Source: Hyphomicrobiales bacterium (lineage in GTDB: Bacteria > Pseudomonadota > Alphaproteobacteria > Rhizobiales > Xanthobacteraceae). From it: DNA of 64,000 nt. The notes below the pieces were generated by a model. That model made no database searches. It worked only from the letters and a program-made list of their open reading frames with translations, and was not told the origin of the DNA. The DNA is taken from the NCBI GenBank assembly GCA_041691675.1, contig JBEPUC010000018.1:1363-65362 (forward strand), read 5' to 3'. The translations under genes were made by a program, and so were the position numbers. Position 1 is the first letter of the stretch; every line of letters begins with the position of its first letter. This document shows positions 40,014 to 56,404 of this stretch, piece by piece.

Positions 40014-40017
40014 ACAG

Positions 40018-40206: not shown

Positions 40207-40220
40207 CCGAAGCGGATTTT

Positions 40221-41880
40221 TCATTCCGCCCTCGTCGCATCTGGAGTGCCGTCGTCAACATCAAGGACATATTGAGGAAACTTTCGCATTTCCAATACCA
40301 AATCCTCTAGCGAAGGTGTCTCGTATTTGTCTCCAACGGTACCTGGAGCATGCCCGCACATCGCATCCCTGACACGGCGCTCAATACCGGCACGCGCAGC
40401 CCGCCGTTTAAACGTATGCCGCCATGCGTGATTTGGGCTAATATTTTTGTCATCGACACCGAGAGAACGCACCCAGTCACCTATTTTTTGTCGAACAGAA
40501 ATCCAAGGTGCGCGCACAGGCCGTGTCGGATCAGTACTTTCTCGGCGCTTTTTTGCTCCATTGTAAAAGAGTGGACCAAGGCCCGCGCTCTGAACAAAGT
40601 CTATGAAGCCCTGATCGATAAGGTCGGTATGCAGAGGCACAGTTCTAGCCTTTCGCCCCTTAACCGCACCGGCCTCTGGCGTGATGTGCATTGTCCAAAA
40701 ACCAGCCTTGTGCTGTAGAAAATCCTCCTTACGGACTTGTGTTACCTCTCCCGGCCGTGAGCCCGTATAAGCACAAAGCCATGGCACCCACCGTCGAGCT
40801 GCAACCTGAAAACGACTTGTACGCGCTGTCGGCGCATCAAGCGACGCGCGAAGGATCGTCTTCCATTCACCCTCATTAAACTCACGACTGCGGAGCTCCT
40901 GTAGTTTGCGTGGAACCGCAATAGAAACGTCCTCAAAAGGATTGGCATCGATAATCTTGTTAGCCTTAGCCCATTCAAAGACGGTCGAAGCGGCACGCAA
41001 CCACACATCATTCGCGACTTCAGGCGATCTATTTGCTGTTACAAGTGTACCTTTCCAACTGATTGCGTCCTTATTTGAGATGGAGGCAATGTCTCTATCT
41101 GGGAAAACCTTTTCTAGAGCAAGAAAAACGGAGCGCCAGCGGTTAATGGTTGCTGGAGCAGGTCGTCTCTCTTTCACCCAGGCCTCGAAGACCTGCCAGC
41201 ATGTCACACCAGCGAGCTTCAAAAGACTGTCGGCCGATATCACCGGAAATCGTTGCGGCCGTGGGTCGACGCCGTAATCACCACTTGTCCGACGCTTTAA
41301 AAGCGCGAGCGCAGCCACATATTCGCTCTCGACCTTTTCCAGAAAAAGCTCTCTCGCGTCATCGGTCAGCTTGATCTCCCTTTCTGCAAGAAAGGTCTCC
41401 ATCTGGCCGCGCTCAACAAGATGGGCGTGAACATGGCGTCGGAGTGCGGGTAATTCCATCCACCTTGGATCGCTATCCGGATGGTCGGCATCGTCAGGAG
41501 CAAATCGTGCGTAGACCGCATCCAATTGATCGTAAATTAAATCCCAATGGTGAGATTCACCGGGATCATCCTCATAGCGGTCTACAAACCAGATGTACCA
41601 TTCGCCAGCCAGGCCGTGCGCTTCACGCTGGGTCAGGGAACGCCCCTCGCCCTTAGCAGCAGTTCGGAACGCGGCGATGCGGCCCGAGATAGCCGAGTCC
41701 CATTCTCGAAATTGCTGCTTGGCTTGATCTGATGGAAGGGTTCCTGGCCGGCGGAACCGCTCCTCGCGAGCTATCCCGTGGACCCGCTTGTAGGCGTCCC
41801 GGACGTCACCTGGGATGGCTTTACGGCCAAACCAATCGCCGTTTTTCGCTCGCTGTAATGAGGTCATCGGTACAAGCATT
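40221..41880 (-). CDS. Tyrosine recombinase/integrase with DUF6538 N-terminus
   Basis: YTGSRPGE (R), NHAWRH (HxxR), CGH and DKY catalytic residues; adjacent to the tRNA 3' end. Confidence 0.92.
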
Positions 41881-41962
41881 TGTAGCACCCTTTGTAGCGG
41901 TAGGGCGCTCAAACTCTCTGCTATCCCTCAACTATCTGAGGAAAAGGCATTTTCAACGCTAA

Positions 41963-42049
41963 TGGTGCGGACGGAGGGAATCGAACCCTCACGGGGTTAC
42001 CCCCAACGGATTTTAAGTCCGGTCTGTCTACCAATTCCAGCACGTCCGC
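41963..42049 (-). tRNA. tRNA-Leu (TAA), 87 nt, CCA encoded
   Basis: GCGGACG/CGTCCGC acceptor stem, anticodon loop CTTAAAA, long variable arm and GTTCGATT T-loop. Confidence 0.95.
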
Positions 42050-42160
42050 TCTTCACCATAGCTACCATTTCTTTTGATATCTCAATGTGTTATGCAATTC
42101 CGCCTAACCACCCCGATCCGTGCCTCACCACTGCACCACACAACATTTGATGGCTAGCCA

Positions 42161-42532
42161 ATGGCTAACTCGGCATTATCTGACGCTTCCATACGGAGTT
42201 TTAAGCCGCCCGAAAAGGGGCAGCTAAAGTATTGGGATGAGAAGCTCCCCACGTTTGGCGTGCGCATCAGCCAGGGTGGCAGCAAGACCTCTATTCTCAA
42301 CTACCGAAACAACTACATCAGCATCGGCCGCTTCCCGATAATCTCGCTGTCGGAAGCGCGCACGCAAGCCAGACGACTTTTGGCTGAGTTTACCCTCGGC
42401 AAAGGGCGCCCCCAGGCCATTACTTACGAACAGGCTGTAGAGGCCTTTCTCAAAGACCGTGCCGAGAAAGCGCGGGCGCGTACCGTGTCGGCGCACCCGG
42501 TGCCGGTAAGACCACCTTCATTTCAGCGATGA
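42161..42532 (+). pseudogene. Integrase N-terminal arm-binding domain (DUF4102-like), truncated
   Basis: LSDASIRSFKP..YWDEKLPTFGVRISQGGSKT..IGRFPIISLSEAR. Homology ends near 42486. Confidence 0.8.
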
Positions 42533-44025
42533 TTGCAGACGACCTGAAGAAGGTCGCCCGCAACGAATGCTCCATCTTTGTGATGGACAGTCAGAACGAG
42601 CTCGTTCCGGATATTTCGAAGCTGGAGATGTTTGCGCCAGGGCGGCCACTACACAATAAACTTATATACTTGGAGCCCGACCCCGATTATCCGTTGGCCC
42701 TCAACATCTTTGACACCAACAAAACACGCTCGCAAAGGCTTTCCTCGAAAGAGCAAGCCATGCTTGAGAGCGGCGCAATTTGGATGGTGGAATTCTTCCT
42801 CAGCTCTTTGGTCAAATCGGAAGCCTCCCCTCACCAAGATACATTCCTGAATTACGTCATACCAGCGTTGCTCGCGATACCCGACGCCACGATTTTTACC
42901 TTCAAAGATTTGCTTGAGGGCGCCAAGGTCAAAAATGGGCCGACAGGTTACGACCATTACAAGCAGCATTTCACCAGCTTGCGCCAAGATACCCAGGAAT
43001 GGCTCCGCGACCGCATGCACAGCCCTGAAATGGCGACGACCCGCAACGCCATACGGACCCGCCTGGACGGCTTCACCGCCCGTGGCTTTTTTCACGATAT
43101 GTTTGCTCATCCCCGCAACAAACTCGACCTTTTTGCGGAAATGCAAAGTGGCAAGGCAATCCTGGTCAACACCTCGAAAGGTTTGCTCAAGAACGGCACC
43201 GAACCCTTTGGGCGCTACTTCATTGCCCGTCTCTTGCAAGCCGCCGAAGAGCGCATGTTTTTGAGCCCAGGAACCCGCCTGCCCGTCTACTGTTACCTAG
43301 ATGAAGCTTCCGACTACATCTCAGAAGAAGAAAATATCGAGGAGCTTATAAATAAGGCCCGCAAGCAAAACGTCGCACTTATCATTGCCAATCAGATGGA
43401 ATCTCAAATCAAATTGCCAGTCGTTCGAGATGCGCTGAGCCGCGTAGCCATCCAATGCCGAGGCGAGCCCGGAGAACCCGGCCAGCCTCCGAAGTGGGAT
43501 ATCGCTATCGGCAATCAACAGTCGGTCCAAATCCAGGTGCCTAACGTCAATTTCGCCACGATGCCGCAAATGTCGAGCGCCAATTATGAGCAAATGCTCA
43601 CCGATATGCGCTGTCGCTTTTCTACATCGGCTGTGGAGCGCGCGCAGACACAGCAGCGGCGTGATGATGACAGGACGGCTAGCGGCGAGACACATCAACG
43701 ACGCGAACCGCCCAAACCCGAGAGGCCCACAGGACCTCCGAGAGATGACGAGTACGACGAGCGCTACGACAGTTTCGAGCTGATGTCGCTGCATCCTGTT
43801 AAAGCCCGCAAGGGAACGGTTCTCACAGTGACCTGCCCAAACGGCCATGAGCATCTACAGCCAATCGCTCCGGGCACACATAATGGCTTTCGTTTTTGCA
43901 TCAGAGGAGTCGGTACTACCCGCCGTCCCGACAATAGAAACGGTAATTTTTGGGTTGAACTTGCTATCCCTGAAATGCGCGAGCAACAGACCGATTCCAA
44001 CGAGACCGACGCAAAGCCGTGGTAA
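42487..44025 (+). pseudogene. VirD4/TraD-like ATPase lacking its 5' end, with a DnaJ C-terminal-like tail
   Basis: Walker A GAPGAGKT at 42490-42513, in frame upstream of the tracked ATG; Walker B YLDEA; ARKQNVALIIANQ. No start codon precedes Walker A. Confidence 0.75.
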
Positions 44026-44133
44026 TTTCCTGTGCTATCATTTTAGGGGCACTACATCACACGCCTACATCAGCAGCCTCAGCTCACCATGGCTGCCGGT
44101 GACCAACTTTTATAAGCGAGTATTCTACAATGC

Positions 44134-45069
44134 ATGAAAGAGAGAAATTCACGATGGGATGACGAGCCGAGGCTTAAGGACGGTAAGCCTGTCATTGTCA
44201 CGCCGTGCGAAAGCGACCTCAAGCTCTTTCAGTTGCTCCTGCGCTATCGATACCTCCCCGCTAATTTCATACTGCCCTTCACCGGCTTTTATTACAGCTA
44301 CGTCAAAGGCCGCTTAGACGTACTGGCCCGACAGCCGAACAAGTTTTTGCACCGGCCGGAAAAGCAACGCTCGCAGCCAAATGCCGGGTATCGCTACCTC
44401 ATTTATGAGCTTGCCTCTAAAGGCGAGCAGAAGCTCAAGGACGCCGGACTTTGGACGCCTGAACCGCAACTGGGCGATAAAAAGCTCTTTGCGCACTCCC
44501 TCATGGTTTCTGAGACGATTGCCAGCCTGGAGCTTGGCTGCCAGTCAATGATTTGGTGGCCCGAGATTGCCGCCCGCCTCCCGAAGCCCGAGCGCCATAT
44601 CCCCGTTGAAATATCCCACGGCAAGCAAACGGCGGCATTTGATTACTACAACGACAGCAATGGCCCGTTCGGCATCCGCTACTCCGATGGAACGGCGCGT
44701 TTCTTCTCTCTTGAGGCCGAGCACACCAACCAGGTGGATTGCAGTAACCTCCGCAAAACCTCATTTCTCAAGAAGTTTCTCGCTATCAAGCACATCATGG
44801 ATACAGGCGCGTACAAACGCGTCTGGGGCTTGCCCAACCTCGTGACGCTGGTGGTCACCTCCTCACAAGCCCGGATCGACACCATGAAAGACCTCATCTT
44901 GCGGGAAACCAACGGCAAAGGCGTGCGCTACATCGCCTTCTACAAGATCCCCGTCATGGAGGACTTGGAAGCCTCAAAACCCATGCCGGAGATGTACACG
45001 AATGGCTGGCAACGCGCCGGTCATCCCGACCTCTATCTCAACGAGCCCGTTGAGACGAAGTCACGTTAG
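44134..45069 (+). CDS. Replication-relaxation (Replic_Relax) family relaxase
   Basis: N-terminal wHTH-like region, LFAHSLMVSET, FFSLEAEH and LVTLVVTSSQARI, directly downstream of the coupling ATPase. Confidence 0.78.
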   Translation: MKERNSRWDDEPRLKDGKPVIVTPCESDLKLFQLLLRYRYLPANFILPFTGFYYSYVKGRLDVLARQPNKFLHRPEKQRSQPNAGYRYLIYELASKGEQKLKDAGLWTPEPQLGDKKLFAHSLMVSETIASLELGCQSMIWWPEIAARLPKPERHIPVEISHGKQTAAFDYYNDSNGPFGIRYSDGTARFFSLEAEHTNQVDCSNLRKTSFLKKFLAIKHIMDTGAYKRVWGLPNLVTLVVTSSQARIDTMKDLILRETNGKGVRYIAFYKIPVMEDLEASKPMPEMYTNGWQRAGHPDLYLNEPVETKSR

Positions 45070-45078
45070 GAGAACACA

Positions 45079-45270
45079 ATGGAAGCGAAACTGGCTCGAT
45101 TGAAGGACTTGATAGCTAAGCGGGACGAGATCGACGGCGAGCTGTGCCTGCTTTTAGGTGTTGAGAAAAAGGAGCGGAAGCCCCTTTCCTGTTCCAAGTG
45201 CGGCGAACAGGGTCATACTGCACGCACCTGTCAGAAGGACACTCCGGATGCGAACCAGCCACGTGGATAA
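45079..45270 (+). CDS. 63-aa coiled-coil plus CCHC zinc-knuckle protein
   Basis: CSKCGEQGHTARTC = C-X2-C-X4-H-X4-C; RBS AGGAG. Confidence 0.8.
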   Translation: MEAKLARLKDLIAKRDEIDGELCLLLGVEKKERKPLSCSKCGEQGHTARTCQKDTPDANQPRG

Positions 45271-45436
45271 GGCCATAGATGTGCTGCGTTGACTTAGGCT
45301 CGCCGGTAAGGACGATAATCGGGAACTTAATAAGCTTAATTATACAGCAAGTTCGAGCCCTTTTAAGTAAATAGCCGTTGACCTAACTCTACTTTTAGTC
45401 GTATTTGCTGCCCGTGGCTTCAAACGGGGATAAATA

Positions 45437-46138
45437 ATGAAAGTTCTTACATTGCTCGCAGGAGCGAGCTTGCTCGTTTCGGCCTTGGGCGGGACGGCAC
45501 ATGCAATCACTGTCGATGGCGTTCTCGATGCTGGGTACGGCGCCTCGACTTCTACTGTTACGTATGACGCGAATGCGCAAACCAGCAATTTCGGTAGCCC
45601 TGGCTCTTCGACCAACGCACTTGGTTACAACGTCTATCTCGCCGATCAGGCGGGCACGTTGTACGGATATTTCCAGGGCACAACGGGGACCTCGGCGGGA
45701 GCATTCGCTAACCTCTACTTCGGGCTAAACCATGATCAAGTAGCTGGCTCGATCTTTGGCTTCGAGTTAGGTAACAATAATGCCTTTACTCCAGGTGCGT
45801 CGGGCTCAGTCGCCACGCCGCTCGTGAATTTCGTTGCCTCTGGCAACAACATCGAGTTCTCGATCCCGAACTCGTATTTTGAAGGCGTTCTTGCGGGCCT
45901 CACAAATACGACGTTTGCTCAAAATGGCGACACCATTACCCTTCGTCTCTCCCAGACCTTCGGCTATTCAGTCGCAGGTGGTGACAACTTCGGCACCGGC
46001 GATGCTCGCTTGGGCGAAGTAACTTTGGCTGACGTATCGACGACCCCCCTTCCGGGTACGCTGCCGTTGTTCGCCAGTGGCTTGGGCGCGCTCGGTTTGT
46101 TCGTTGCGCGCAAGAAGCGTAAGAACGCGGCCGCCTAA
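45437..46138 (+). CDS. PEP-CTERM (PLP variant) surface protein
   Basis: Signal peptide; C-terminal TTPLPGTLPLFASGLGALGLFVARKKRK sorting signal. Confidence 0.85.
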   Translation: MKVLTLLAGASLLVSALGGTAHAITVDGVLDAGYGASTSTVTYDANAQTSNFGSPGSSTNALGYNVYLADQAGTLYGYFQGTTGTSAGAFANLYFGLNHDQVAGSIFGFELGNNNAFTPGASGSVATPLVNFVASGNNIEFSIPNSYFEGVLAGLTNTTFAQNGDTITLRLSQTFGYSVAGGDNFGTGDARLGEVTLADVSTTPLPGTLPLFASGLGALGLFVARKKRKNAAA

Positions 46139-46163
46139 GGATTGGAATCGTTGTTGGATATGG

Positions 46164-46197
46164 AAGGCCCGCGTTAATGCGCGGGCCTTTTGCTTTT
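46164..46197 (+). terminator. Rho-independent terminator
   Basis: AAGGCCCGCG/CGCGGGCCTT stem plus T-tract. Confidence 0.75.
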
Positions 46198-46401
46198 AGC
46201 ATGAGAAATTATCTGGCTCTCAGTCTCTTTCACATGCTACAAAATACCATGCGGAAAAATCCCATAACCTTCGGCGCTTTTTTCAACTCTATTTTTACGA
46301 CACAACGTCTCGTTAGGATTGCATTGATATTGGCGTTTACTGTCGCGGCCGCCTACCTTCAAGTCCATCACGGCGGTTCTTGAGTGGACTTAAAATAATA
46401 G

Positions 46402-46424
46402 AAAAACCCCGCACTAGGCGGGGT
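46402..46424 (-). terminator. Rho-independent terminator of ardC
   Basis: CCCCGC/GCGGGG stem plus T5 on the minus strand. Confidence 0.7.
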
Positions 46425-46434
46425 GTAGTAGTCA

Positions 46435-47283
46435 TTACGCCGCTTCTTCGAGTTGCTCCGTAAAGCCTCTCAAATAATCTGCGGCTTTCGAGGCTTTCGA
46501 TGCAGCAGTGAAAATAGCACGGCTATCTTCTTTGAATAGCTGGAGCCAATTTGCCAAATATTCCGCATGGCGTAGTTGGCCAGTGACACTCAAGTGAGCA
46601 CAAAGGAACGCTGCACCAAGTTCGGCTACCAACTCCTCTGCCGCATAGGCATTCGTACCAAAGCGGGTTTTCAAGTCGCGGTCGAGGCGCTTAGGGTGCC
46701 CAGACCAATGGCAACATTCATGTAGTGCCGTCGCCAAGTAGTGCTCGTAACTCTCAAAGGCGGTTGTATCTGGTAAGCGTATGAAGTCGTCTGCGGGGCG
46801 ATAGAACGCCATATCGCCGCCGTGCCTTATGTCGGCTTTGGTAGCTTGGATAAACGCCGTAGCCTGGTCATCGCGCGCTTGTTGCGAGAGAACAGGTGAG
46901 GGCGCTTCTTGCTCAATGCCATCCATTTGGGAGACATTGAAAACGTGGAAGCTTTTGAGATACCCGACGCTCTTTGCATCATCGCCTTCTCCTACAATCA
47001 TCTTGTTTGTGTAAACGACGCGCGTGGACTTCTCGCCGCCCTTCACTTGGGCGCCAATGGCCTGTGCTTGCTTGTAAGTGAGCCACAGAGAGCTCGGCCA
47101 GTCGTTGCGTATCTGGCTATCCCAAAGGATGCAGATATTGATGCCCGAGTAGCTGCGCCTGGTAGCAAAGTTGCGGGGCATGATGCTGCCGCCCTTCACC
47201 GTCCATGGCCTTGTCCATGGGACGGTACCAGCCTCAAGCTGTTTGATGATGGTATCGGTAACCGATACGTACAAATCCGCCAT
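46435..47283 (-). CDS. ardC: ArdC-like antirestriction protein
   Basis: GTVPWTRPW, YSGINI, WLTYKQAQ, LHECCHWSGH and YAAEELVAELGAAFL. Confidence 0.9.
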   Translation of the reverse strand: MADLYVSVTDTIIKQLEAGTVPWTRPWTVKGGSIMPRNFATRRSYSGINICILWDSQIRNDWPSSLWLTYKQAQAIGAQVKGGEKSTRVVYTNKMIVGEGDDAKSVGYLKSFHVFNVSQMDGIEQEAPSPVLSQQARDDQATAFIQATKADIRHGGDMAFYRPADDFIRLPDTTAFESYEHYLATALHECCHWSGHPKRLDRDLKTRFGTNAYAAEELVAELGAAFLCAHLSVTGQLRHAEYLANWLQLFKEDSRAIFTAASKASKAADYLRGFTEQLEEAA

Positions 47284-47332
47284 AGCGAACCTCCATTGTT
47301 GTGGAACGTCCGCTTCTCATTGTACCGCGCCG

Positions 47333-47641
47333 TTAGTTCGCCACCTCTAGTATCAACACGCGAATAGTTTTGTTGCAGTCGAGAGGGTCGCGGCTGCGCC
47401 CTTTCAAGTTGGCGGTGCGATACTCGATGTGCCAGCGTATCGGGGGCGCCATAAGAATTAACCCTGCATCGTGGTGGCCATCCTTTCCGAAACTGGAGTA
47501 GGCGCGCACGCGGCGTAGCGCTTCATTCTTGATTGTCTCAGGAAGCTCGTAGAACTCTCGCGACATCATCACTACACCAAGCAAGGCGGTGCGCATGTTG
47601 TCGTTAAGCAGTCGGAGTGTGTGCAATCGCGACATGCTCAA
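47333..47641 (-). CDS. DUF3768-like protein
   Basis: LNDNMRT, RVRAYSSF..GHHDAG and DPLDCNKTIRVL; upstream of ardC. Confidence 0.6.
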   Translation of the reverse strand: MSMSRLHTLRLLNDNMRTALLGVVMMSREFYELPETIKNEALRRVRAYSSFGKDGHHDAGLILMAPPIRWHIEYRTANLKGRSRDPLDCNKTIRVLILEVAN

Positions 47642-47755
47642 TAATCACGTTTTTATCTGCGTGAATGTACGGCTGCAATGTTGGGCCATGGAGCGCCAAG
47701 CGGAGCAATGATGTGCCACGCGCGAACTAGATTATTTTTGCCCGTCACTTACGGT

Positions 47756-48241
47756 ATGCGCATGGGCTTCATCAGAGAAAAAACAATTAAAGGCCGCCGG
47801 TATCGCTATTACCAACACAATGTCCGTAAGGGTAAGAAGGTTGTGTCGGTTATGACGTATCTGGGGGCTGTGGGTGCTATGACGGCGATCAGTGTGCTCG
47901 CGGCGCGAGATGCGGCGGGAAAGGATAAGCCTATCCGTTATAAGTCAAGGATGTTCGGCACCGATAAGCGGGCTAACGCGCACCAGGAGGCCTATAACCG
48001 CGAACGGTGGGAAAAGGAGATGGCAGACCCAGCGGGGCGTTTTGCGCGGGAGGCAGGTAAGGCAAAGATGCACAGTGACAGAAAGGCAGGAGAAACGCCA
48101 AAACCCTCACGGGCCGACGTAAAGGCTGAGAAGGCTAAAGCGGAAGAAATGCGGGAGTTTAACGAGCGACTCAAAGAGGCGAGGGCTGAGCAGGAGGAGG
48201 GTATCGCTATGAGGAACGAGCGGGAGGAGAAGTCTGCTTAG
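47756..48241 (+). CDS. Basic/charged hypothetical protein
   Basis: N-terminal IKGRRYRYYQHNVRKGKKVVSVMTYLG beta-hairpin motif and a coiled-coil tail. Confidence 0.6.
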   Translation: MRMGFIREKTIKGRRYRYYQHNVRKGKKVVSVMTYLGAVGAMTAISVLAARDAAGKDKPIRYKSRMFGTDKRANAHQEAYNRERWEKEMADPAGRFAREAGKAKMHSDRKAGETPKPSRADVKAEKAKAEEMREFNERLKEARAEQEEGIAMRNEREEKSA

Positions 48242-48428
48242 CTAGTCGCTTCGTCTTCGGCCTTCCGCCCTTCTTGCCATTGATGCGGGCAGCCTTTGCC
48301 TTCTTCTTGGATTTGATTGAACCGAGTGCGACTGCGGCTTGTTTGCGCTCCCAACAGTCATCGCAAAGGCCTTCGTGGAACGGCGACCATGATTGGGCGG
48401 AGCACTTTGCACATGTATACATGGCCAT
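48207..48428 (-). CDS. Small Zn-finger protein with an AARxNGKKGGRP basic tail
   Basis: CAKC...CDDC and KAARINGKKGGRPK. Confidence 0.65.
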   Translation of the reverse strand: MAMYTCAKCSAQSWSPFHEGLCDDCWERKQAAVALGSIKSKKKAKAARINGKKGGRPKTKRLAKQTSPPARSS

Positions 48429-48429
48429 A

Positions 48430-48636
48430 TTATTTATTCGGAGGCACAAAGTCCTCATTAGCTGCTAACTCCCTCAATTTGTCGCGTAAGGGCTGTGCCA
48501 GTGCAATAAGCTCTGAGGCTATGTGCGCGCTCTCTTCAATTGCACCCGATGATTTTCCATCCCAAAAGCTCGCGACCTCTTCAAGCCCGCGAATAAATCT
48601 CGTTAACTCCGCTTCAAGTGATGTATGGTTGTCCAT
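48430..48636 (-). CDS. Hypothetical helical protein
   Basis: 68-aa ORF in a tightly packed minus-strand run. Confidence 0.55.
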   Translation of the reverse strand: MDNHTSLEAELTRFIRGLEEVASFWDGKSSGAIEESAHIASELIALAQPLRDKLRELAANEDFVPPNK

Positions 48637-48639
48637 AAA

Positions 48640-48921
48640 TTATTTGATATTCGAATAAGCGGGGTGGCACTGCGGACACTCTCTCGTGTCGAGGCTTTCC
48701 CCGTGAGCGTCTAATTGCGCCAGGCAGCCCGTGCCGCCGCACGTTTCGCATTTTGGCTCGGCAATCTCATCACGGCGCACCCAACGCCTGATGTACTCGC
48801 CGTCTCGGTTAGTAACGCCGATACAAACGCTGTAGCCCGTAGGAGACTTACTATCGAACTCGACTACCTTGCCCTTGGTGCCGTCTTTGAGCACCACTTT
48901 GTCTAAGATTATGAGAGGCAT
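48640..48921 (-). CDS. Hypothetical protein with an SH3/KOW-like N-terminus and a Zn ribbon
   Basis: DKVVLKDGTKGKVVE; CETC...CPQC. Confidence 0.6.
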   Translation of the reverse strand: MPLIILDKVVLKDGTKGKVVEFDSKSPTGYSVCIGVTNRDGEYIRRWVRRDEIAEPKCETCGGTGCLAQLDAHGESLDTRECPQCHPAYSNIK

Positions 48922-48933
48922 ATTAGTGGCGCT

Positions 48934-49032
48934 TTATCCGAGCGCCTGATAACCGAATAAAAAGACCATGAGCGAGCTGAACAGAACGAAACTGAGAAAC
49001 AGTGCAACCAACATCCAAACTTCTTTGTGCAT
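48934..49032 (-). CDS. 32-aa single-TM peptide
   Basis: MHKEVWMLVALFLSFVLFSSLMVFLFGYQALG; not in the ORF track. Confidence 0.45.
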   Translation of the reverse strand: MHKEVWMLVALFLSFVLFSSLMVFLFGYQALG

Positions 49033-49177
49033 AAAACGTGTTAATTAGGCTTGTACCTCTACATTGTAACCGAACGGTGGGATTGTACCAGCAAATCGTT
49101 GTGTATAAGGAGGCAGACGACACAAAAGTTATAGTGTCAATAAGCGCCTCGCTATATCTTTGTCCTGAGGTGCCTTC

Positions 49178-49378
49178 ATGACTAATCCTGGCCGAACGGA
49201 TGTAAGTAAAGCGTGTACCAAGTGCGGAGGCCGCATGTATTTGGCCGATATACGCAAGGCTGAGCAGAAGAAGCAGGAGGAGGTTCACACCTTTAACTGT
49301 GAAAAGTGCGCGGCACAAAATAGCTTTGCCTTTCCGAAGCTGCCGCGACTGTATCGTTCCGCTAAAGACCTTTCATAG
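49178..49378 (+). CDS. Small Zn-ribbon protein
   Basis: CTKCGGRM...FNCEKC; RBS GAGGTG. Confidence 0.6.
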   Translation: MTNPGRTDVSKACTKCGGRMYLADIRKAEQKKQEEVHTFNCEKCAAQNSFAFPKLPRLYRSAKDLS

Positions 49379-49666
49379 AAACTTATTCCTTTTTTACGCT
49401 CGCGTTTCCCTTCAGAAGCCAGCATCACCTCTCAACCGACTGGTGTTCTCACACAAACAACGTGTCGCTCCAATGCACGCGATTGAAGACGATTGCGGCC
49501 TCCTATGTGGGGAGAACTTGCCGCTTGTAATAATAACACGTGGTAAAATGGGTGCAGATGTAGATTGGTGCGCGGCATCCGCGACGTTACGGCCGAAGCG
49601 TCGTGGGTCCCGCACATCAATCAAAGCAGTAGCGGGAAAGGAGTATCTCATGGCTAAAGAAGCTAA

Positions 49667-49990
49667 GGAGAAGCCGCAGCCCGCTGCAAAGTTTCGGCTC
49701 GGCTAGCCGTGGGAGACAACACCGGCTTTAGCACCGGGCCTCATTGCCATACTCAATGGCGGCGCATCAACTGGAACGGCGGCACGAACTACACGACTGT
49801 TGACATCAACGAGGCCAACAACTCCTTTGACCCGACCCAGTTTTATACAGGTGCAACTCCAACACCGCCCGAGCTTGGCCCCGCCGATAAGATAGCGGTT
49901 ATGGCCGCAGAAAAGGAAACCTCGGGCGACAGCAAGACTGCCACCATGCTCTGGGCAGTCGTCAACTTTATCAAAGCCTTCGGAAAATGA
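49667..49990 (+). pseudogene. M23 peptidase (endolysin-like) C-terminal fragment
   Basis: GDNTGFSTGPHCH (HxH) motif. The frame is open only from 49667, so the first Zn-ligand motif is missing. Confidence 0.7.
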
Positions 49991-50033
49991 GGGGGTATAA
50001 TTACTCGGTGCGATTATTCTTCATCTAAACATC

Positions 50034-50291
50034 ATGGAAATCATCTTAGCCGTCTTGGTCTCAGCTCTTACTCAATGGCTTAAACAGCATATGCCAAACC
50101 AGTATTACACGCTTGGTCTTGTCGCTGTGCTCTCGCTCGTTGGTGCAGGCATCTATACGACCCTGGTAGATATCGGGTACTGGCGGGGTGCATTGCAAAT
50201 CATGATAATTGCCGGGGCAATTTACACGTACATCATTGCAAGGTTTGAGGGCGGTTCAGAGGTAAACACCTACATGCCTCCACAGGGCTAA
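50034..50291 (+). CDS. Holin-like membrane protein
   Basis: 85 aa with 2-3 TM segments, directly after the M23 fragment. Confidence 0.55.
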   Translation: MEIILAVLVSALTQWLKQHMPNQYYTLGLVAVLSLVGAGIYTTLVDIGYWRGALQIMIIAGAIYTYIIARFEGGSEVNTYMPPQG

Positions 50292-50350
50292 AACAGCATC
50301 TATTTCGCGCAAAAATGCCCCCTACAACGATGTTCGGGGCCTTTTGCTAT

Positions 50351-50815
50351 TCATATGTTTCTTAGCTTCAAGTATGGCTTAAATACCTCGACAAGCCTTG
50401 GATATTCGGCCGTCAAATCCTTTTCCATGTCTGCCAGTTGATCGGCCCACTCACTCTTCCGAGGATCATTCAAAGGCAGTGTATCAGTCTGCCTAGATTT
50501 CGTCCTGTGTGCCAGCAGCTTTGTTCGCAGCCCGTCCAGATACACAGTCACTTCCTCTTCGAAGAGGAAGACCACGTCAGCCGTGTTAAAATTAAAATTT
50601 GCTACATCTTTTCCTTCTACGCGACCTTCAGCCATGAAGCCCGCCAGGAATCCTCTAGCGCCTTCAAATATCTTCAAACGTTTTTCAAATAAATCTAAAT
50701 TTAGCTTTGCCGATGCGATTCTGGCTTGCTTTAAGGCGATCCATGAACCGAGGCATGAGATAACTATCAGCGCAATTGCCTGAGCCCATTGCATCCACCA
50801 CGGCAAATAGTACAT
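50351..50815 (-). CDS. Membrane-anchored hypothetical protein
   Basis: One N-terminal TM followed by LNLDLFEKRLKIF helical region; immediately downstream of the candidate ncRNA. Confidence 0.7.
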   Translation of the reverse strand: MYYLPWWMQWAQAIALIVISCLGSWIALKQARIASAKLNLDLFEKRLKIFEGARGFLAGFMAEGRVEGKDVANFNFNTADVVFLFEEEVTVYLDGLRTKLLAHRTKSRQTDTLPLNDPRKSEWADQLADMEKDLTAEYPRLVEVFKPYLKLRNI

Positions 50816-50910
50816 CACAGTCTCCACTTTCAATTGAGCCAGGTACAGCCTCTTTATACCCTTCAGTAGCACGATGCTCTTGGTCTTCTGTGTCTTTATG
50901 TGAAGCGTAG

Positions 50911-51391
50911 CAGTCTGTCTTTCAGTGAGCTCAGAGCCTACCCTTTAGAGGATGAGCTAACAAAGACTGGAAAGTGAAGTTAAGCGGCGAAAATTGAAAA
51001 ATTGTTGGCGGCTAAAAACTAGTTTCGCGACCACACCCTGGCGGGCTTTCTACACGTGAATTATTTCGCGCCTTATCACATGAAGTGGCACCTCATTCTT
51101 AGCAGTCAACAATCTTTCAAAGTACACCGTCTCGCATCCCCATGAAGTCGCCAGTCGTCAGGGCTAAGACGTTGCTGGCGATTGGAGGGGAAACGAGAAT
51201 AGGATGGGTTTTTACCGTGCGAGCATCCTTGAGAGCACGTCTACGCTTGTTGTAGAACGAATTAGAGCCACTCCCATTTAAGGAAGCGGCTCGTATTCGG
51301 AATGATTGTACGAGATGTACCCAGAAATTATAACACATGGTGTTACGGCCTCAGGGCACAGTACGTTATGTACAGTCTCGATTGTCATTCC
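50911..51391 (-). ncRNA. Candidate large structured ncRNA (~480 nt)
   Basis: At least 8 contiguous helices found by eye, G-U wobbles favouring the minus strand, a possible pseudoknot, and an extended -10 promoter placing +1 at the first helix. Confidence 0.6.
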
Positions 51392-51396
51392 TACTA

Positions 51397-51405
51397 ATAT
51401 TACCA
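51397..51405 (-). promoter_or_regulatory. Extended -10 promoter (TG-G-TAATAT)
   Basis: Minus-strand TGGTAATAT ends 5-6 nt before GGAATGA at 51391. Confidence 0.55.
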
Positions 51406-51610
51406 CAGTTTCATGCGTCCATCATCATGGGTGTGGATAATGGATCGTGGCCGCGAGCTTGATGCTCCGAAAGCCATGTATGATGAAGCGATCGCAAGAG
51501 CTGCCTTTGGGAAAGGGCGGCTTTTTGCTTGTCCCATAGGCTGCGAATCACCAACATGCACGCTAAGGTGTAGGGAGATAAGGGAGAATACTGTGCCACC
51601 CGCGCAATCT

Positions 51611-51934
51611 ATGAAAGATTCAACCCTCGACGATCTCACATCAGCTCTATGCGAGGCGCCGACCAGCCAAAAGCATTGGAATGCTAAAGCGGAATTCTCC
51701 CGGCGGCAATTCGAAGACCAGAAGGAAACGTCGAGGTATCAAATCATGGCGGCTGAGGCAGAGGTTAAGGCGGCAAACGCTGCGACACTAGCTGCGGATG
51801 CAGCGGTTAAAGCAACACAGGCCGCCGAGAGAAATGCAAGATACATGCTGGCGTCTGTCGTTGTTGCGGCACTTGCAGCAGTCGCGTCTGCTGTGTCAGC
51901 CCTAGCGACGGTCCACCCTGCATTATTCAAGTAG
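51611..51934 (+). CDS. Ala-rich coiled-coil protein with a C-terminal TM
   Basis: ATG after a GGGAG RBS region; AAEAEVKAANAATLAA and YMLASVVVAALAAV. Confidence 0.6.
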   Translation: MKDSTLDDLTSALCEAPTSQKHWNAKAEFSRRQFEDQKETSRYQIMAAEAEVKAANAATLAADAAVKATQAAERNARYMLASVVVAALAAVASAVSALATVHPALFK

Positions 51935-51980
51935 ATGCAATAGCGACGGAGTGGGTTCTGAAAGGCTTCCAGGTGCTGCA

Positions 51981-52175
51981 ATGAACAAGCTCGCCATACT
52001 GCCCAATGTCACTATCGTAGCCATGAACGGGATGCTTAATCTCTTCCATGCAATAGATGAATGCAAAACGCTTGAAGAAGCGAAACCACTCATCATCAAG
52101 GCGGTGGGTTTAGTCGACTTCGTTTTGGCGCAGGCTCGGGAGGCCGTTTTGGAAGACGGCCCCACGCGCCACTAA
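51981..52175 (+). CDS. 64-aa helical hypothetical protein, homologous to 40018-40206
   Basis: Shared LPx(I/V)TI...(D/E)EA(R/K)..I..A......V...AR.A pattern. Confidence 0.6.
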   Translation: MNKLAILPNVTIVAMNGMLNLFHAIDECKTLEEAKPLIIKAVGLVDFVLAQAREAVLEDGPTRH

Positions 52176-52352
52176 CCAAGCCCCCAGGGGGCTCAGCAAC
52201 GGCCCTGCCAGATTCAATTTAATTTCTCTCTCCGCACGTTCCCAGTGCTCTTTTTCTTTATCCTCCGGCTGGCCTTCCTCGTTCCAAATTTCAAAGGCAC
52301 GCTGGCGGATGCGATTTTCTAAAATACGGCTCTCTAATTCATCGTCATTCAT
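52110..52352 (-). CDS. DUF2934 family protein
   Basis: IRQRAFEIWNEEGQPEDKEKEHWERAERE. Confidence 0.85.
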   Translation of the reverse strand: MNDDELESRILENRIRQRAFEIWNEEGQPEDKEKEHWERAEREIKLNLAGPLLSPLGAWLVARGAVFQNGLPSLRQNEVD

Positions 52353-52423
52353 GGTCTCTACCTCCATTGCCCCAACCAGCCACACAGGACCTTGTTCCAT
52401 TACAAATAGATTGCGCTTCTTTG

Positions 52424-52981
52424 CTAGTGCTTTTTGATCGCGGCAACTACGCTCGGCATGAGGACGGCGGCAATCCTGGCATGAGACGCGGCAGTGAGAT
52501 GATGCCCATCCGCCTGATAATTTGAGCCTCCACTTCGCATTGGCCCTAAAATCCGCTGGTATGGCGCGACTATTGGCTTTGCCCCATGCGCCCGGATTGC
52601 GCTTATAATTCTGGCCTTATTAGCGTTTATGCTCCCTTCCGAACCGCCGCGCTTCCTGTCGTTATCTCCTCCAGTATCGAAAATCACAACGCGCGTTCCT
52701 GCTGAAATATTTGAAGCCCTGCTCAGCACTCCGCCGCTTGTGTCGCCATTCAGGGCGTTCACGCTCACCGTCACGTCATACCCCTTCGCCCGCAACATAC
52801 GCTCAAGCTGCGCTGGCCATGCTTCCGATGTAGAAACACCCCTGCCGTTGGTATTGCTTGCGCCGAGAGCCAATATCTTAACTGTCTCAGCACGAGCCAC
52901 GCCCGGCCCACCAAGCGCGAATAATCCAACGAACAGCACAGCAGTTAGCAGATGTCTTTTAGAATGCCCCTTTTGCACCAC
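52424..52981 (-). CDS. Exported SGNH/GDSL hydrolase
   Basis: LALGASNT block I, NALNGDTS, DTGGDND and DGHH block V. Confidence 0.85.
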   Translation of the reverse strand: MVQKGHSKRHLLTAVLFVGLFALGGPGVARAETVKILALGASNTNGRGVSTSEAWPAQLERMLRAKGYDVTVSVNALNGDTSGGVLSRASNISAGTRVVIFDTGGDNDRKRGGSEGSINANKARIISAIRAHGAKPIVAPYQRILGPMRSGGSNYQADGHHLTAASHARIAAVLMPSVVAAIKKH

Positions 52982-53238
52982 ACCCTCCCGGTCCTAATTG
53001 GATAATGACGCCTGTATCCGGCTTGCCGATATTCGATATCGAATGCACACAAAAAGCAACGCACACGTATAAGAATAAATTAGATTGCGCCGAGTTGAAC
53101 GGCGGTCGCCCCGAACAAGTCACCAGACATATGCACCCTGATTTTCACAGGTCGAGGGAATCGGACTCCTGTTGTTCGGTTGCTTCCGAGGGTAATAAGA
53201 AGCTAGCGACGTGCCCACCAATCCTGCTTCATTGTATC

Positions 53239-53406
53239 TTAATAAAAGCCAAGCTTGTGCAGTTGGTGCTGCACAAGTCTATTGAAATCCTCTGCCCGCA
53301 TTTTTGCCTCATGAAACATCGGATCGCTATTCTGACCGTAAAGTATTAACTCGTCGAAAATCACGAACGTCACGAACAGCACTAAGAGGGCCATTAGTGT
53401 CCTCAT
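53239..53406 (-). CDS. 55-aa membrane-anchored peptide
   Basis: MRTLMALLVLFVTFVIFDELILYGQNSDPMFHEAKMRAEDFNRLVQHQLHKLGFY; RBS GGAGGT. Confidence 0.6.
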   Translation of the reverse strand: MRTLMALLVLFVTFVIFDELILYGQNSDPMFHEAKMRAEDFNRLVQHQLHKLGFY

Positions 53407-53474
53407 CCCCACCTCCCCTTGCGGCTCCTAGCCCCGAAGTATGACGGTCGGGGATAGTTTGCCGAAAGACGATT

Positions 53475-54044
53475 TTAGAACGCTGGCTCATTCTCCGCTA
53501 GCGGCTCTGTATCTTTGCTGTGCGAAATATCGGACTGTGCAGTATCGAACGGATTTTCGCCTGAAAAGAGAGCATCTAGGTTGATAGGCTTCTCTTTATA
53601 AGCCTGGAGTACTTCCGGGGGCGTCTCCTTGGCCGGTGACGGCACGACGCTGTACTCAGTCTCCAACGCTTCGCCTTTGCGGTTTATCGTAATGCTGTAC
53701 TGGCGAGGGTCGCCCCAGTCCTCGTTATTAATAAGTTCCTGGATCGCCGATTGTATCGTGGCCTGAGTAAGCTGGAGTATCTCAACAGCCTTGGTGTCGA
53801 AGTTCCACACCACAAATGCCCAGAAATGCTTTTGCGGCCAACCCTTGTTTAAGTCCGCATCAGCAGGAACAACCGTCCACATCTGCTTGGCACGAACCGG
53901 CTTGCCATCCTCATTCCAGTATTGCCACCCCATGACCGGAGCCGAAAGCACACGAAATTTGTTTGCGCCTGTGCGGAGCTTCATGTAGCCGCCGCCGCTT
54001 GATTTAGGAACCTCGTAACCCTCCGGCAAAAATCCTGTATCCAT
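53475..54044 (-). CDS. Phage SSB/annealing-like protein
   Basis: YMKLRTGANKFRVLS, HFWAFVVWN, WGDPRQYSITINRKG and an acidic tail ending in Phe. Confidence 0.6.
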   Translation of the reverse strand: MDTGFLPEGYEVPKSSGGGYMKLRTGANKFRVLSAPVMGWQYWNEDGKPVRAKQMWTVVPADADLNKGWPQKHFWAFVVWNFDTKAVEILQLTQATIQSAIQELINNEDWGDPRQYSITINRKGEALETEYSVVPSPAKETPPEVLQAYKEKPINLDALFSGENPFDTAQSDISHSKDTEPLAENEPAF

Positions 54045-54231
54045 AAATTATTTTGTTATCTGCTAATTATCATCGGCGTACCGATTGCTATCTTTTAATA
54101 CCCTGCCTTCCTCACCATCCCACCACTTATTTTCCATTTCAATCATCGAGCGTAGAGTACCTCGGTTGTGAGCGTTTAATTTTATTCCCGTCTTCTCCTT
54201 GTAAGCTGCAATTTCCTCTTCCACCGTCATG

Positions 54232-54414
54232 CTAGAAACTCATCATATCGTTGATAAGGGCGCGGTAGTTTCCACGCGCAAGCATCAATCGACCACGCGC
54301 TGCTTTGACCTTTAGCTCTCCTCTCTCACGTAGGGCTTGGGCCTTTGCAAACTCGCTCACTGCCTCGCCCTCCTCTTTGAGGGCGGCCTCTAGTTCTTCC
54401 GCTTTCGGTTTCAT
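54232..54414 (-). CDS. Small phage-like hypothetical protein
   Basis: Helical ORF in the leftward operon. Confidence 0.5.
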   Translation of the reverse strand: MKPKAEELEAALKEEGEAVSEFAKAQALRERGELKVKAARGRLMLARGNYRALINDMMSF

Positions 54415-54419
54415 ATTAA

Positions 54420-54617
54420 TTATGCGCACCAGCGGGAGAAATTGATATCCAACGATTTCAACGCCTCAGCAGCCAACTCTTGCGCGTTTGCCGCACCGTC
54501 AGCTATTTCTTTTAATACCTTGCAATGAAGCTCATCCTCGGCGCCATGCGCATTTTCGTCGTCGCTTTTATTCGCTTCTATCAGCGTGAGTATCTGACGT
54601 ACATCTGTGACTTCCAT
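54420..54617 (-). CDS. Small phage-like hypothetical protein
   Basis: DDENAHGAEDELH...FSRWCA, a phage-type small ORF. Confidence 0.6.
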   Translation of the reverse strand: MEVTDVRQILTLIEANKSDDENAHGAEDELHCKVLKEIADGAANAQELAAEALKSLDINFSRWCA

Positions 54618-54690
54618 ATAATTGTTACTCTATTCCGCATCCGCTGCTTATCAAAAGCAGATACGGAGCAGAGAAGATAAGCTTATAAAT

Positions 54691-54873
54691 CTACTGGGGA
54701 ATAAAGAGCCCCGCCCCTGATGCAAACTCTACGCCTATCAAGACGTACATCGTGATGATGGATAGTGTTGCAAGGAACGCTAGGAGCAGCCTGCGCCCCG
54801 CCCCGTACTTCTTCTCTCGATAGTCGGCGGCAATGGTGTTGCGGCCGATACCTTCAATATATTTCATATGCAA
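54691..54873 (-). CDS. Small membrane protein, first gene of the leftward operon
   Basis: One TM segment. Confidence 0.5.
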   Translation of the reverse strand: MHMKYIEGIGRNTIAADYREKKYGAGRRLLLAFLATLSIITMYVLIGVEFASGAGLFIPQ

Positions 54874-55000
54874 TGTGAGTAAGTTTGTAATGGCGGCTCG
54901 ACCGGTCCGCTACACCAAATCTACCATGCCCTAGAATTGGTGCAATGCGACTTATCCCCACCCGACACCGCGACACATTTGGATGTGATATACTGAGAGC

Positions 55001-55144
55001 ATGGCAAAGAAAACGAAGAAGACGAAGCCGACGTATCAAGTGCGCTTATCAGAGGAACATTACGAGCTAATTAGACGCAAAGCCTTTCGCGCTCACAGGC
55101 CGATGACCGCGATACTAGAAGAGATAATTGCCGCGAAGGCATGA
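55001..55144 (+). CDS. 47-aa ribbon-helix-helix-like regulator
   Basis: MAKKTKKTKPTYQVRLSEEHYELIRRKAFRAHRPMTAILEEIIAAKA; not in the ORF track. Confidence 0.7.
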   Translation: MAKKTKKTKPTYQVRLSEEHYELIRRKAFRAHRPMTAILEEIIAAKA

Positions 55145-55239
55145 GAGGAGATACAGGCGACATAGTTGCATTTTGGCTCTTCGTTTCAGTCTTAGTGTCG
55201 CTCGTTATTTTCGACATCTGGTGTTTTTTCGTACTATGA
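55141..55239 (+). CDS. 32-aa TM peptide
   Basis: ATGA overlaps with both neighbours; hydrophobic. Confidence 0.55.
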   Translation: MRGDTGDIVAFWLFVSVLVSLVIFDIWCFFVL

Positions 55240-55364
55240 CCAACCGCCCTTGCTTAAAATGCAAAGAAATAACGTTCCAAGAACGTCGCCCTTACGGCAA
55301 AGACTTTTATCAATGGTTCTGCTCCCGCTGCCAAAAGACAGCGTGGGTCGCCAAGATTGTATGA
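55236..55364 (+). CDS. 42-aa Zn-ribbon protein
   Basis: CLKC...CSRC; ATGA-coupled on both sides. Confidence 0.6.
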   Translation: MTNRPCLKCKEITFQERRPYGKDFYQWFCSRCQKTAWVAKIV

Positions 55365-55630
55365 GCATACTCACTCTCAAGGACCGACTTGCCCGCTATC
55401 TCCGCAAGAACAATGATTGGATCGCTTCGGGCGACATCCAACGCATTGTCGCTGAGAAGACAACTTACTCGCCGCAAAATGTCGGTCGCAGAATGCGGGA
55501 GTTACAGAATGAGGGTGTCGTGGAGGTCAAGTACGTGAAAAACCATGCGCACTATCGGTTCAAGCTCCAAGAAACTTGGGAGCAGAAGAACGCGCGGGCT
55601 GTGCGGATGTTTGAGCAAATGCCGGGATAA
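55361..55630 (+). CDS. Winged-helix-like DNA-binding protein
   Basis: IASGDIQRIV...SPQNVGRRMRELQNEGVVEV. Confidence 0.6.
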   Translation: MSILTLKDRLARYLRKNNDWIASGDIQRIVAEKTTYSPQNVGRRMRELQNEGVVEVKYVKNHAHYRFKLQETWEQKNARAVRMFEQMPG

Positions 55631-55855
55631 AAAGAGACCGCCCACTCAGGCGGTCACAAAAAGAAGCCCCGGCGATTTGACCGGGGCTTCCCAGTTTTGC
55701 CCGAGGCTCAGACTTTATCCCGGGTGCGGTCATCATAGGTGTCGGGTGATTAGGGAGTGCTGAATCCGAGGGAACGGAAGAATTTAAATGGCTAGCCAAT
55801 GGCTAACAAAGAAGATATTTTAATGTAATCAATAACTTAGTCCGGGTATCGATCT

Positions 55856-55896
55856 GATTTTAAGTCCGGTCTGTCTACCAATTCCAGCACGTCCGC
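55856..55896 (-). pseudogene. 5' half of tRNA-Leu left at the host-side attachment site
   Basis: Identical to 42009-42049; diverges right after the anticodon loop. Confidence 0.9.
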
Positions 55897-55951
55897 ATGT
55901 CGCTTCATCATCCGCTCGCACGGATGGAAGTCCGGCGCGCGGCTTATCAAT

Positions 55952-56404
55952 TTATTTCGGTAATAACGAGCCCCATACTTCGTCCCAGTCCTTGCCGGAC
56001 GGGTCGGTGACGCGGCCGTCTTTCTCATAGAACTTGTTCGGTATCTGGAAGATCGCAACGAACATGCCGCCGTTGGGCGACCACGCCGAATGCCGGCTGC
56101 CGGGCGGACGCCAGACGAACTCGCCGGCGCCGACCTCGATGCCGGCGTCGGGACCTTCCTTGTCCACCAGCGAGCCTTCCAGGACATACGTCTGCTCGAT
56201 CAGGACGTGTTCGTGGTCGGGCAATTCGGCACCGGGCTCCATCTTGAACAGTAGCGTCGCTAGCCCGCTCTTGGGATCGAACATCAGCGTCTTGGTCTGA
56301 CAGCCGGGAAAGCGCGACGTCTGCCACGGCATATCCTTGGCGCGCACGACGCGCGAGAGCAGGTCAACGGCCCCGGCTTTTTCAGTATCTGCCTTGACGT
56401 TCAT
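55952..56404 (-). CDS. ChrR-like cupin
   Basis: LPDHEHVLIEQTYVLEG and WRPPGSRHSAWSP. Confidence 0.85.
   Translation of the reverse strand: MNVKADTEKAGAVDLLSRVVRAKDMPWQTSRFPGCQTKTLMFDPKSGLATLLFKMEPGAELPDHEHVLIEQTYVLEGSLVDKEGPDAGIEVGAGEFVWRPPGSRHSAWSPNGGMFVAIFQIPNKFYEKDGRVTDPSGKDWDEVWGSLLPK

Follow-up and report, generated by a model that had tools for sequence, protein, structure and literature searches.

The gene-free gap and its fold

The stretch analyzed here, called the window throughout, comprises 64,000 nt of contig JBEPUC010000018.1 (positions 1,363 to 65,362; assembly GCA_041691675.1, Hyphomicrobiales bacterium) and originates from a freshwater-sediment metagenome. A gap at 50816-51439 lies between two divergent genes, of which one (50351-50815, minus strand) codes for a small membrane protein and the other is located on the plus strand, where its true start is probably the ATG at 51440. 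On its minus strand, the gap codes for a genuine structured RNA, about 510 nt long, very tightly folded and conserved, that belongs to an uncatalogued family, a conclusion that can be drawn with high confidence from its fold and from the comparison with homologous loci (denoted by L and a number). All coordinates refer to the window unless a locus is named.

A preceding inspection of the DNA alone (the sequence-only reading) had described the gap as free of genes. This description held, as stops were found in all six frames of 50816-51439 in all four homologs, no reading frame is conserved, and the frames containing the longest open reading frame (ORF) differ among the homologs. A small plus-strand ORF (51142-51255) was considered and rejected; it has an in-frame stop in L028, and the frames differ between homologs. 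No tRNA or tmRNA-like feature was found in the gap.

The region 50873-51412 was folded and compared with 100 dinucleotide-preserving shuffles. The minus strand reached -190.9 kcal/mol against -140.9 +/- 5.7 in the shuffles (z-score -8.78) and none of the 100 shuffles was as good, while the plus strand had a z-score of -3.09. With DNA parameters, the z-scores were -4.5 for the minus and -2.5 for the plus strand. Two shuffle runs each gave z-scores of -7.6 and -8.7 for the homolog L030 (antisense -5.0) and of -7.4 and -7.5 for L156 (antisense -4.1), and the unconstrained minimum free energy (MFE) structure of L030 has the same architecture as that of the window. Each sequence forms 16-24 G-U pairs and 0-4 A-C mismatches at the consensus pairs described below. 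Since G-U pairs outnumber A-C mismatches, the folding strand is the minus strand, folded as RNA. A structured RNA under selection is thus indicated by z-scores of -7.4 to -8.8 against shuffles together with compensatory pairs in the homologs.

The sequence-only reading had recognized no known family in the gap, and a search with Rfam 15 led to the same result. The models of this release cover GOLLD, ROOL, HEARO, raiA, OLE, group I and II introns, riboswitches, ROSE, the abiF motif (which is an Rfam family of its own), 6S, and tmRNA. No match to the RNA region was obtained at the gathering level, and at E<=10 only four chance-level matches appeared (14-17 bits, with cut-offs of 40-62). Five homologous loci gave zero matches at E<=5. 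What is new is therefore an RNA family absent from Rfam, within a known kind of element, the structured non-coding RNAs (ncRNAs) and leaders of phages.

Homologs and covariation

Homologous loci were fetched through the protein family encoded downstream of the RNA and through DNA patterns. Three further full-length copies were obtained, namely L030 (an IMG/VR viral contig), L156 (the same as L157), and L028 (the same as L029); the last has a different 5' body, termed H1', and an insertion of about 300 nt. Partial copies are present in L005/L011, L007, L015, L017, L150, L160/161, L162/163, L170, and L173. The window, L030, and L156 were aligned with MAFFT, and RNAalifold gave a consensus structure of 153 pairs for them. 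In this three-sequence alignment, 94.3% of the cells at paired positions held standard pairs, as compared to 38-44% when the partners were slid by 1-3 columns, and compensatory changes occurred in 23 of the 153 pairs as compared to 2-5 in the slid controls. None of 500 shuffles matched any of the five pairing measures. For the 3' domain, which could be aligned for nine sequences, 92.5% of the cells were paired (32-46% when slid) with 13 compensatory pairs (1-2 when slid), clustering in the two helices H7 (six pairs) and H8 (five pairs). A conserved structure of the RNA was hence borne out by covariation among homologs.

In sequence collections of phages and plasmids, BLAST searches with the region detected only a 46-nt match resembling the hairpin H2 on a Nitrobacter plasmid. 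In viral contigs, five of six patterns derived from blocks of the RNA recovered L030 only, the H8 pattern gave no match, and the H2 pattern led to L170-L173. A 17-mer match in viral contigs (L149) was dismissed as chance, and a 15-mer of the motif in the RNA tail was too unspecific, with at least 119 mostly chance loci (L031-L148). The regions upstream of the protein family members L001-L004 and L008-L018 had no unusual structure; that of L006 is moderately structured yet unrelated to the RNA.

Exact 31-mers of the RNA occurred in at least 24 DNA runs from soil, sediment, rhizosphere, and root that belong to more than 20 studies. They were also found in four runs labelled as RNA, two of which are true metatranscriptomes (wood decay and wetland). 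Many soil metagenomes as well as metatranscriptome contigs contain 31-mers from the block of the helix H5, and metatranscriptome contigs of relatives span the RNA from H5 to H2. The occurrence of words from conserved blocks in at least 24 DNA runs and two metatranscriptomes suggests that the RNA is probably common in soil phages.

Architecture of the RNA

The features of the RNA and its surroundings are, in the direction of transcription:

51406-51440, no strand assigned: conserved divergent block of promoter and ribosome-binding site, in which relatives have TTATCCCCAG in place of TTATCCACA (51432-51440)
51397-51405, minus: extended -10 box TGGTAATAT, 6 nt upstream of H1
51299-51391, minus: H1, the 5'-terminal three-way junction (z-score -5.25 alone), formed by the stems P1 (GGAAUGA/UCAUUCC) and P1' (CGAGA/UCUCG) together with two hairpins, one small and one apical, the latter conserved (GUGCCCUGAG..GUAAC..GUUAUA..GGGU)
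51258-51298, minus: H2, with outer stem GAAU/AUUC, 2-nt internal loops, an 11-bp inner stem, and the tail UAAUUCGUU
51235-51248, minus: 5' strand of P3 (AAGCGUAGACGUGC), which pairs with 50903-50916 and closes module B
51201-51229, minus: P4 (formerly H4), a window-specific local hairpin
51130-51198, minus: H5, a 69-nt rod that is nearly invariant including its loops, with apical sequence ..UCUUAGCCCUGAC..
51125-51129 (CGGUG) with 50985-50989 (CGCCG), minus: P6, supported by comparison
51098-51120 with 50994-51016, minus: H7, a long stem stacked with P6, with a hypervariable tip at 51017-51097
50917-50967, minus: H8, a hairpin with the conserved apical part CAUCCUC..AGGGUAGGCUCUG
50903-50916, minus: 3' strand of P3 (AGACUGCUACGCUU)
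50816-50902, minus: conserved tail or leader of about 90 nt, with a small hairpin at 50864-50882 and the Shine-Dalgarno (SD) sequence GGAG at 50822-50825
50852-50861, minus: invariant tail motif GGGUAUAAAG (as DNA GGGTATAAAG), about 35 nt before the start codon
50351-50815, minus: downstream gene, 154 amino acids, with an N-terminal transmembrane helix and a helical bundle

Comparison of the loci divides the RNA into two modules, A (51258-51391) and B (50903-51248), and the RNA was not shown to be one monolithic ornate structure; no conserved pairing connects the two modules. The helices H1, H2, H5, and H8 appeared in the MFE structure where the sequence-only reading had placed them and recur in homologs with compensatory changes. 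In module A, the architecture of H1 is kept with altered sequence in L030, L156, and L005, and covariation is present. The inner stem of H2 includes two G-U pairs, in agreement with the earlier observation that this hairpin is perfect only on the minus strand; H2 has a z-score of -6.2 and five compensatory pairs. The shapes of H1 and H2 are the same in every homolog although the sequences differ. An alternative module of H1' and H2 keeps its fold in L028, L007, and L173, where H2 forms the end of the H1' module.

Module B is closed by P3, which is found in the MFE structures of the window and L030 and has 89.7% of its cells paired in the RNAalifold consensus, with one compensatory pair. The sequence-only reading had instead proposed a local hairpin H3 (CUAC/GUAG), which competes with this conserved long-range helix and lacks comparative support. 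Similarly, the long-range pairing formerly proposed as H7 (50982-995/51059-074) consists of sequence specific to the window, and comparison favours P6 and the stem 51098-51120/50994-51016 in its place. The former H7 pairing and a hairpin H6 both fall into the window-specific tip; H4 and H6 are present in the window as described, but the corresponding parts of the homologs differ. At the position of P4, relatives have a different short hairpin or, in L028, the insertion of about 300 nt (L028 4367-4649, between P3 and H5), which is bounded by the direct repeat CGTAGCGGTG at 4322 and 4497. In L005, CGTAGCGG is repeated beside the start codon. H5 is nearly invariant and therefore gives no covariation information. 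In contrast, H7 shows its six compensatory pairs with 96% of cells paired in the alignment of the 3' domain, and the stem of H8 occurs in two sequence types, each self-complementary, with the five compensatory pairs distributed among eight sequences.

Two further pairings were rejected. A pseudoknot between the H5 loop region and a linker (51163-69/51097-103) had been suggested, and the 7-nt complementarity is real in the window, but the partner sequence is missing in all homologs. A 10-nt anti-SD pairing on the minus strand (50970-50979/50822-50831) is specific to the window and probably due to chance. The heptamer GCCCUGA is common to the apical internal loop of H1 (51350-51357) and the apical loop of H5 (51160-51169) on the minus strand and could be a repeated binding site; covariation cannot test this because the heptamer is invariant.

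Dispersal of module A and of H2

The 5' module (promoter, H1 or H1', and H2) is also found on its own. In L007 it is inverted relative to the gene, and unrelated sequence comes after it in two viral contigs, L170 and L173. These two contigs share a block 3' of H2 (L170 6080-6200, L173 8060-8160) with the pattern AAAG.CAGGAAAAA..GTTGAC..CTG.C.AAT.G.TATGC, which looks like a promoter or operator. H2 alone, with its flanks AUAC...UAAUUC conserved, is located between convergent genes on plasmid 1 of Nitrobacter hamburgensis and in L171/L172. The plasmid copy (X14 plasmid 1, L164 2499-2547) is an H2-like hairpin between an IS5 transposase and a relaxase gene; a DUF2934 gene is located close by. Other contigs of the source metagenome contain H2 with flanks that are unlike on both sides.

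Judging from this distribution, H2 behaves as a portable terminator-like or 3'-end hairpin, though without a U-run, and its terminator-like use is suggested because it was found between convergent genes elsewhere. It resembles intrinsic (bidirectional) terminators and REP-like hairpins in its G+C-rich perfect stem, its location between convergent genes, its position as the last element of a short RNA module close to a promoter, and its occurrence in either orientation. It differs from them in that it has the tail UAAUUCGUU instead of a U-run, in that the terminator scan does not call it, and in the conserved flanks AUAC and UAAUUC, which ordinary terminators do not need.

The dispersal of H2 on the Nitrobacter plasmid, in viral contigs, and in contigs of the source metagenome, its inversion in L007, and the mosaic spread of the modules could also be expected of an element acting at the DNA level, such as a mosaic of REP-, RIME-, or MITE-like palindromes, an Frpo- or ssi-like single-strand promoter or priming site, or a replication origin, and ArdC-like and SSB-like genes are indeed encoded in the same island. 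This explanation is very unlikely because of the strand asymmetry caused by conserved G-U pairs, which fits RNA, and because the element is present as a single copy within the 64-kb window. Moreover, no iterons were found in the region and no terminal inverted repeats or target duplications were seen, the fold is multi-branched rather than one long hairpin with -35 and -10 boxes as in Frpo and ssi, and the homologs are located beside phage lysis and packaging genes and not in a plasmid leading region.

Promoter, tail, and optional nature of the RNA

The extended -10 box noticed in the sequence-only reading was recovered at 51397-51405, and a -10-like box occurs at the same distance before H1 in L030, L156, and L005. 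Relatives have TGnGACAAT or TACAAT at this position, preceded by TTGCRY at a distance of 16 nt. A complete promoter of the form TTGCRY-N16-(TGn)GACAAT is present at the corresponding place in L030, L156, L005, L026, and L158, where it is set within the divergent block of promoter and ribosome-binding site. No intrinsic terminator was called in the window by a consensus scan, including the segment between the RNA and the gene.

In L026, the promoter is followed by the gene after about 50 nt, without the RNA, and in L160 it is fused straight to H8 and the tail, which precede a different gene. In L150, the 5' part was removed by an IS110-type insertion and the decayed remainder precedes yet another gene; here (L150 1-420) the gene of the IS110-family transposase ends just 5' of the truncated copy, H5 contains several unpaired changes, and H7 is deleted. 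L162 and L017 have retained only the gene-proximal 100-170 nt. Taken together, the distal 3' part (H8 and the tail) precedes three different genes. The tail motif GGGUAUAAAG stays with the gene family even where the RNA is missing and is also found before the other genes in L150 and L160; in its DNA form GGGTATAAAG, it could be a promoter -10 box or else an RNA element. As judged from the arrangement of these loci, the RNA is inserted optionally, with a conserved promoter on one side and a portable leader tail on the other, because relatives have the promoter and the gene without it. It is likewise an optional add-on to the cassette, and expression of the gene does not require it.

With respect to a role as leader acting in cis, the RNA is situated between promoter and start codon, on the coding strand, and no terminator intervenes. 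A consistent link to the gene family was not found, as most members have no RNA and the distal part occurs before other genes. The sequence-only reading had considered either a new class of large ncRNA or a structured leader of the membrane-protein gene. A conserved, strand-specific element tied to 50351-50815 was confirmed, whereas its unity was not, since it splits into two modules.

Proposed mode of action

On the best reading, the gap forms the non-coding portion at the 5' end of a transcription unit on the minus strand. This unit would be part of an accessory ('moron') cassette carried by temperate phages, or by remnants of prophages, in Alphaproteobacteria from soil and sediment. For the RNA itself, we tentatively prefer a composite function, in which a small RNA ending at H2 is combined with module B as a read-through leader acting in cis. 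Transcription would start near 51391, and H2 would serve as a leaky terminator or 3'-end hairpin, allowing a small RNA of about 135 nt (H1 and H2) to accumulate. In transcripts reading through H2, module B would form a long structured leader ahead of the membrane-protein coding sequence, where it may influence stability, processing, or translation in cis. The H7 duplex of at least 22 bp would be a plausible substrate for RNase III, and the invariant loops of H5 probably bind a protein or another factor. Four features favour this composite function: a promoter is present, the RNA has a stem-loop at its 5' end, no terminator precedes the gene, and the tail is portable.

Structured leaders and processing sites are familiar from phages, for example lambda nut, HK022 put, and the T7 RNase III sites. 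The RNA of the window resembles these in its promoter-proximal conserved hairpins and in the long H7 duplex suited to RNase III. It is much larger, however, and precedes a single small gene instead of a long operon; signatures like boxA/boxB or put were not seen, with no test having been aimed at them.

Several observations weigh against the composite function or against the data on which it is based. H2 has no U-run after its stem (tail UAAUUCGUU), and the terminator scan calls nothing. Of the RNA's own promoter, which the sequence-only reading had proposed, the promoter-like extended -10 box stands, but a two-hexamer consensus scan of the window calls no complete sigma-70 promoter. The pairs were counted on the same few related sequences that yielded the consensus structure, and P3 is weak in L028. 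The metatranscriptome contigs of relatives are short (151 nt), of low depth, and unstranded, and carry-over of DNA is possible. Most members of the gene family have no RNA, which implies that a cis role for the gene is dispensable. Finally, the RNA is conserved at 83-87% nucleotide identity in aligned columns, as compared to 70-75% nucleotide and about 50% amino acid identity of the gene. Given this better conservation, a function of the RNA on its own fits at least equally well.

A serious rival of the composite function, although a less probable one, is therefore a free-standing large ncRNA that acts in trans as scaffold, decoy, or catalyst and is merely adjacent to the gene or processed from a leader. 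It remains serious because the RNA is dispensable for the gene, is better conserved than the adjacent ORF, and has an invariant H5, loops included; the multi-helix junction with closing long-range helices, the phage context, and the wide distribution in soils point in the same direction. On the other hand, the RNA has no recognizable 3' end or terminator before the gene, parts of this mosaic element are found separately, and its 3' part is always directly 5' of an ORF in the loci seen, a sample that is biased because it was found via the gene. A related and somewhat less probable variant is that module B, alone or with module A, forms a new class of ornate RNA released by processing, with a role of its own, for example as self-assembling scaffold, ribozyme, or decoy against host defence.

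The known RNAs closest in kind to such a molecule are GOLLD and ROOL, whose hosts are Lactobacillales and bacteria of rumen and lakes. Both are large RNAs that form RNA-only assemblies (PMC12286853). Like them, the RNA described here is several hundred nucleotides long, forms multi-helix junctions and helices over a long range, has loops that are highly conserved, is located in phages or prophages, and was without a known function at its discovery. It differs in that their Rfam models give no match even at E<=10, in its origin from soil Alphaproteobacteria-like hosts, in its modular, mosaic build, and in having no 3' end of its own, since it runs into the ORF.

Large, strongly conserved structured RNAs are rare, and each new class has so far led to unexpected biology or RNA architecture. 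The interest of the present family rests on its size, the clean covariation obtained from a handful of sequences, and its apparent abundance in soil, where metagenomes would make a large alignment easy to build. The RNA is built from an sRNA-like unit (small RNA) with a portable hairpin at its 3' end, a junction domain that combines an invariant rod with a stem whose tip is hypervariable, and a leader tail that is portable as well; this modular construction offers a tractable case of phages assembling regulatory RNA cassettes around accessory genes. Even if the RNA is only a leader, it provides a useful annotation for many unannotated intergenic regions.

The downstream membrane-protein gene

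The 154-amino-acid protein belongs to a family of about 40 metagenomic proteins with about 50% identity, which start with MYYLPWWMQWAQ, end with KPYLKLGNI, and have no annotation. Members are located at the edges of phage-like islands, and one is encoded by Bradyrhizobium sp. AUGA SZCCT0283 (L001). The predicted structure is confident (pLDDT, predicted local distance difference test, 85.7), but no fold in the PDB matched the model below E 0.1, and the protein had no match in Pfam, PHROG, or PADLOC.

The order of promoter, structured RNA, and protein gene in an accessory region of a prophage is shared with RNA antitoxins. RCd22, a prophage ncRNA that acts on AbiF in cis and trans, provides a precedent (10.1101/2025.04.15.648962). 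Like RCd22, the related abiF-motif RNAs, or ToxI, the RNA could thus be an antitoxin or a regulator that neutralizes the product of the downstream gene as a toxic protein, in the type III-like manner of ToxI/ToxN or RCd22/AbiF, or that neutralizes neighbouring HEPN-like proteins; a gene for an MtlR/DUF4145 (HEPN-like) protein near the RNA in L030, as well as the degenerate RNA copy before a different gene in L150, would be in line with this. An antitoxin function is nevertheless quite unlikely because the protein is usually encoded alone, which would not be the case for a toxin that depends on its antitoxin, and because the RNA has no tandem repeats of the ToxI type; a search for repeat families in it detected nothing beyond chance 10-16-mers. 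Furthermore, the Rfam search gave no abiF-motif match, and the protein is a predicted membrane-anchored helical bundle without a match to a nuclease or defence family.

Setting of the locus

The RNA is part of an island at about 40-56 kb of the window with a G+C content of 0.46-0.55, as compared to about 0.62 in the flanks. A tRNA gene at 41966-42049, the sole gathering-level Rfam match in the window, adjoins this island, in which fragments of integrase genes, a gene for an ArdC-like anti-restriction protein, and one for an SSB-like protein of phage type are located. The island (40000-56000) looks like a decayed integrated phage or element. Near the tRNA gene, an ORF with weak similarity to integrases and, separate from it, an Arm-DNA-binding fragment are present (ORFs 40221-41912 and 42161-42532). 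The ArdC-like protein (46435-47283, minus strand) consists of an ArdcN and a zincin-like metallopeptidase domain (Pfam E 1e-50; PHROG anti-restriction E 7e-84).

The window and L030 share their gene order, in which lysin and holin genes on one strand are followed on the opposite strand by the membrane-protein gene and the RNA; beyond the RNA both continue with a divergent small gene and then the SSB-like gene. At 49709-50291 (plus strand), the window contains an ORF for a holin-like protein of 85 amino acids with several transmembrane segments and a short ORF upstream of it. At the matching place, L030 (5018-6482) has an endolysin gene with PHROG lysis matches and a holin-like gene; the lysin of the window appears truncated. 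In L028/L029, the neighbours are a small-terminase gene and NinG, and in L156 and L150 the cassette borders a chromosomal CheA gene.

The accessory neighbours are variable, with a GDSL hydrolase and a DUF2934 gene (52110-52400) in the window and the MtlR/DUF4145 protein in L030. A motif resembling R-x4-H (..R..VAHG..) was seen by eye in proteins of four loci (L030 8162-8692, L150 687-1310, L005 43-540, and L165 2-271), of which the L030 member matches MtlR/DUF4145. These accessory proteins near the RNA are possibly encoded by HEPN-type defence genes.

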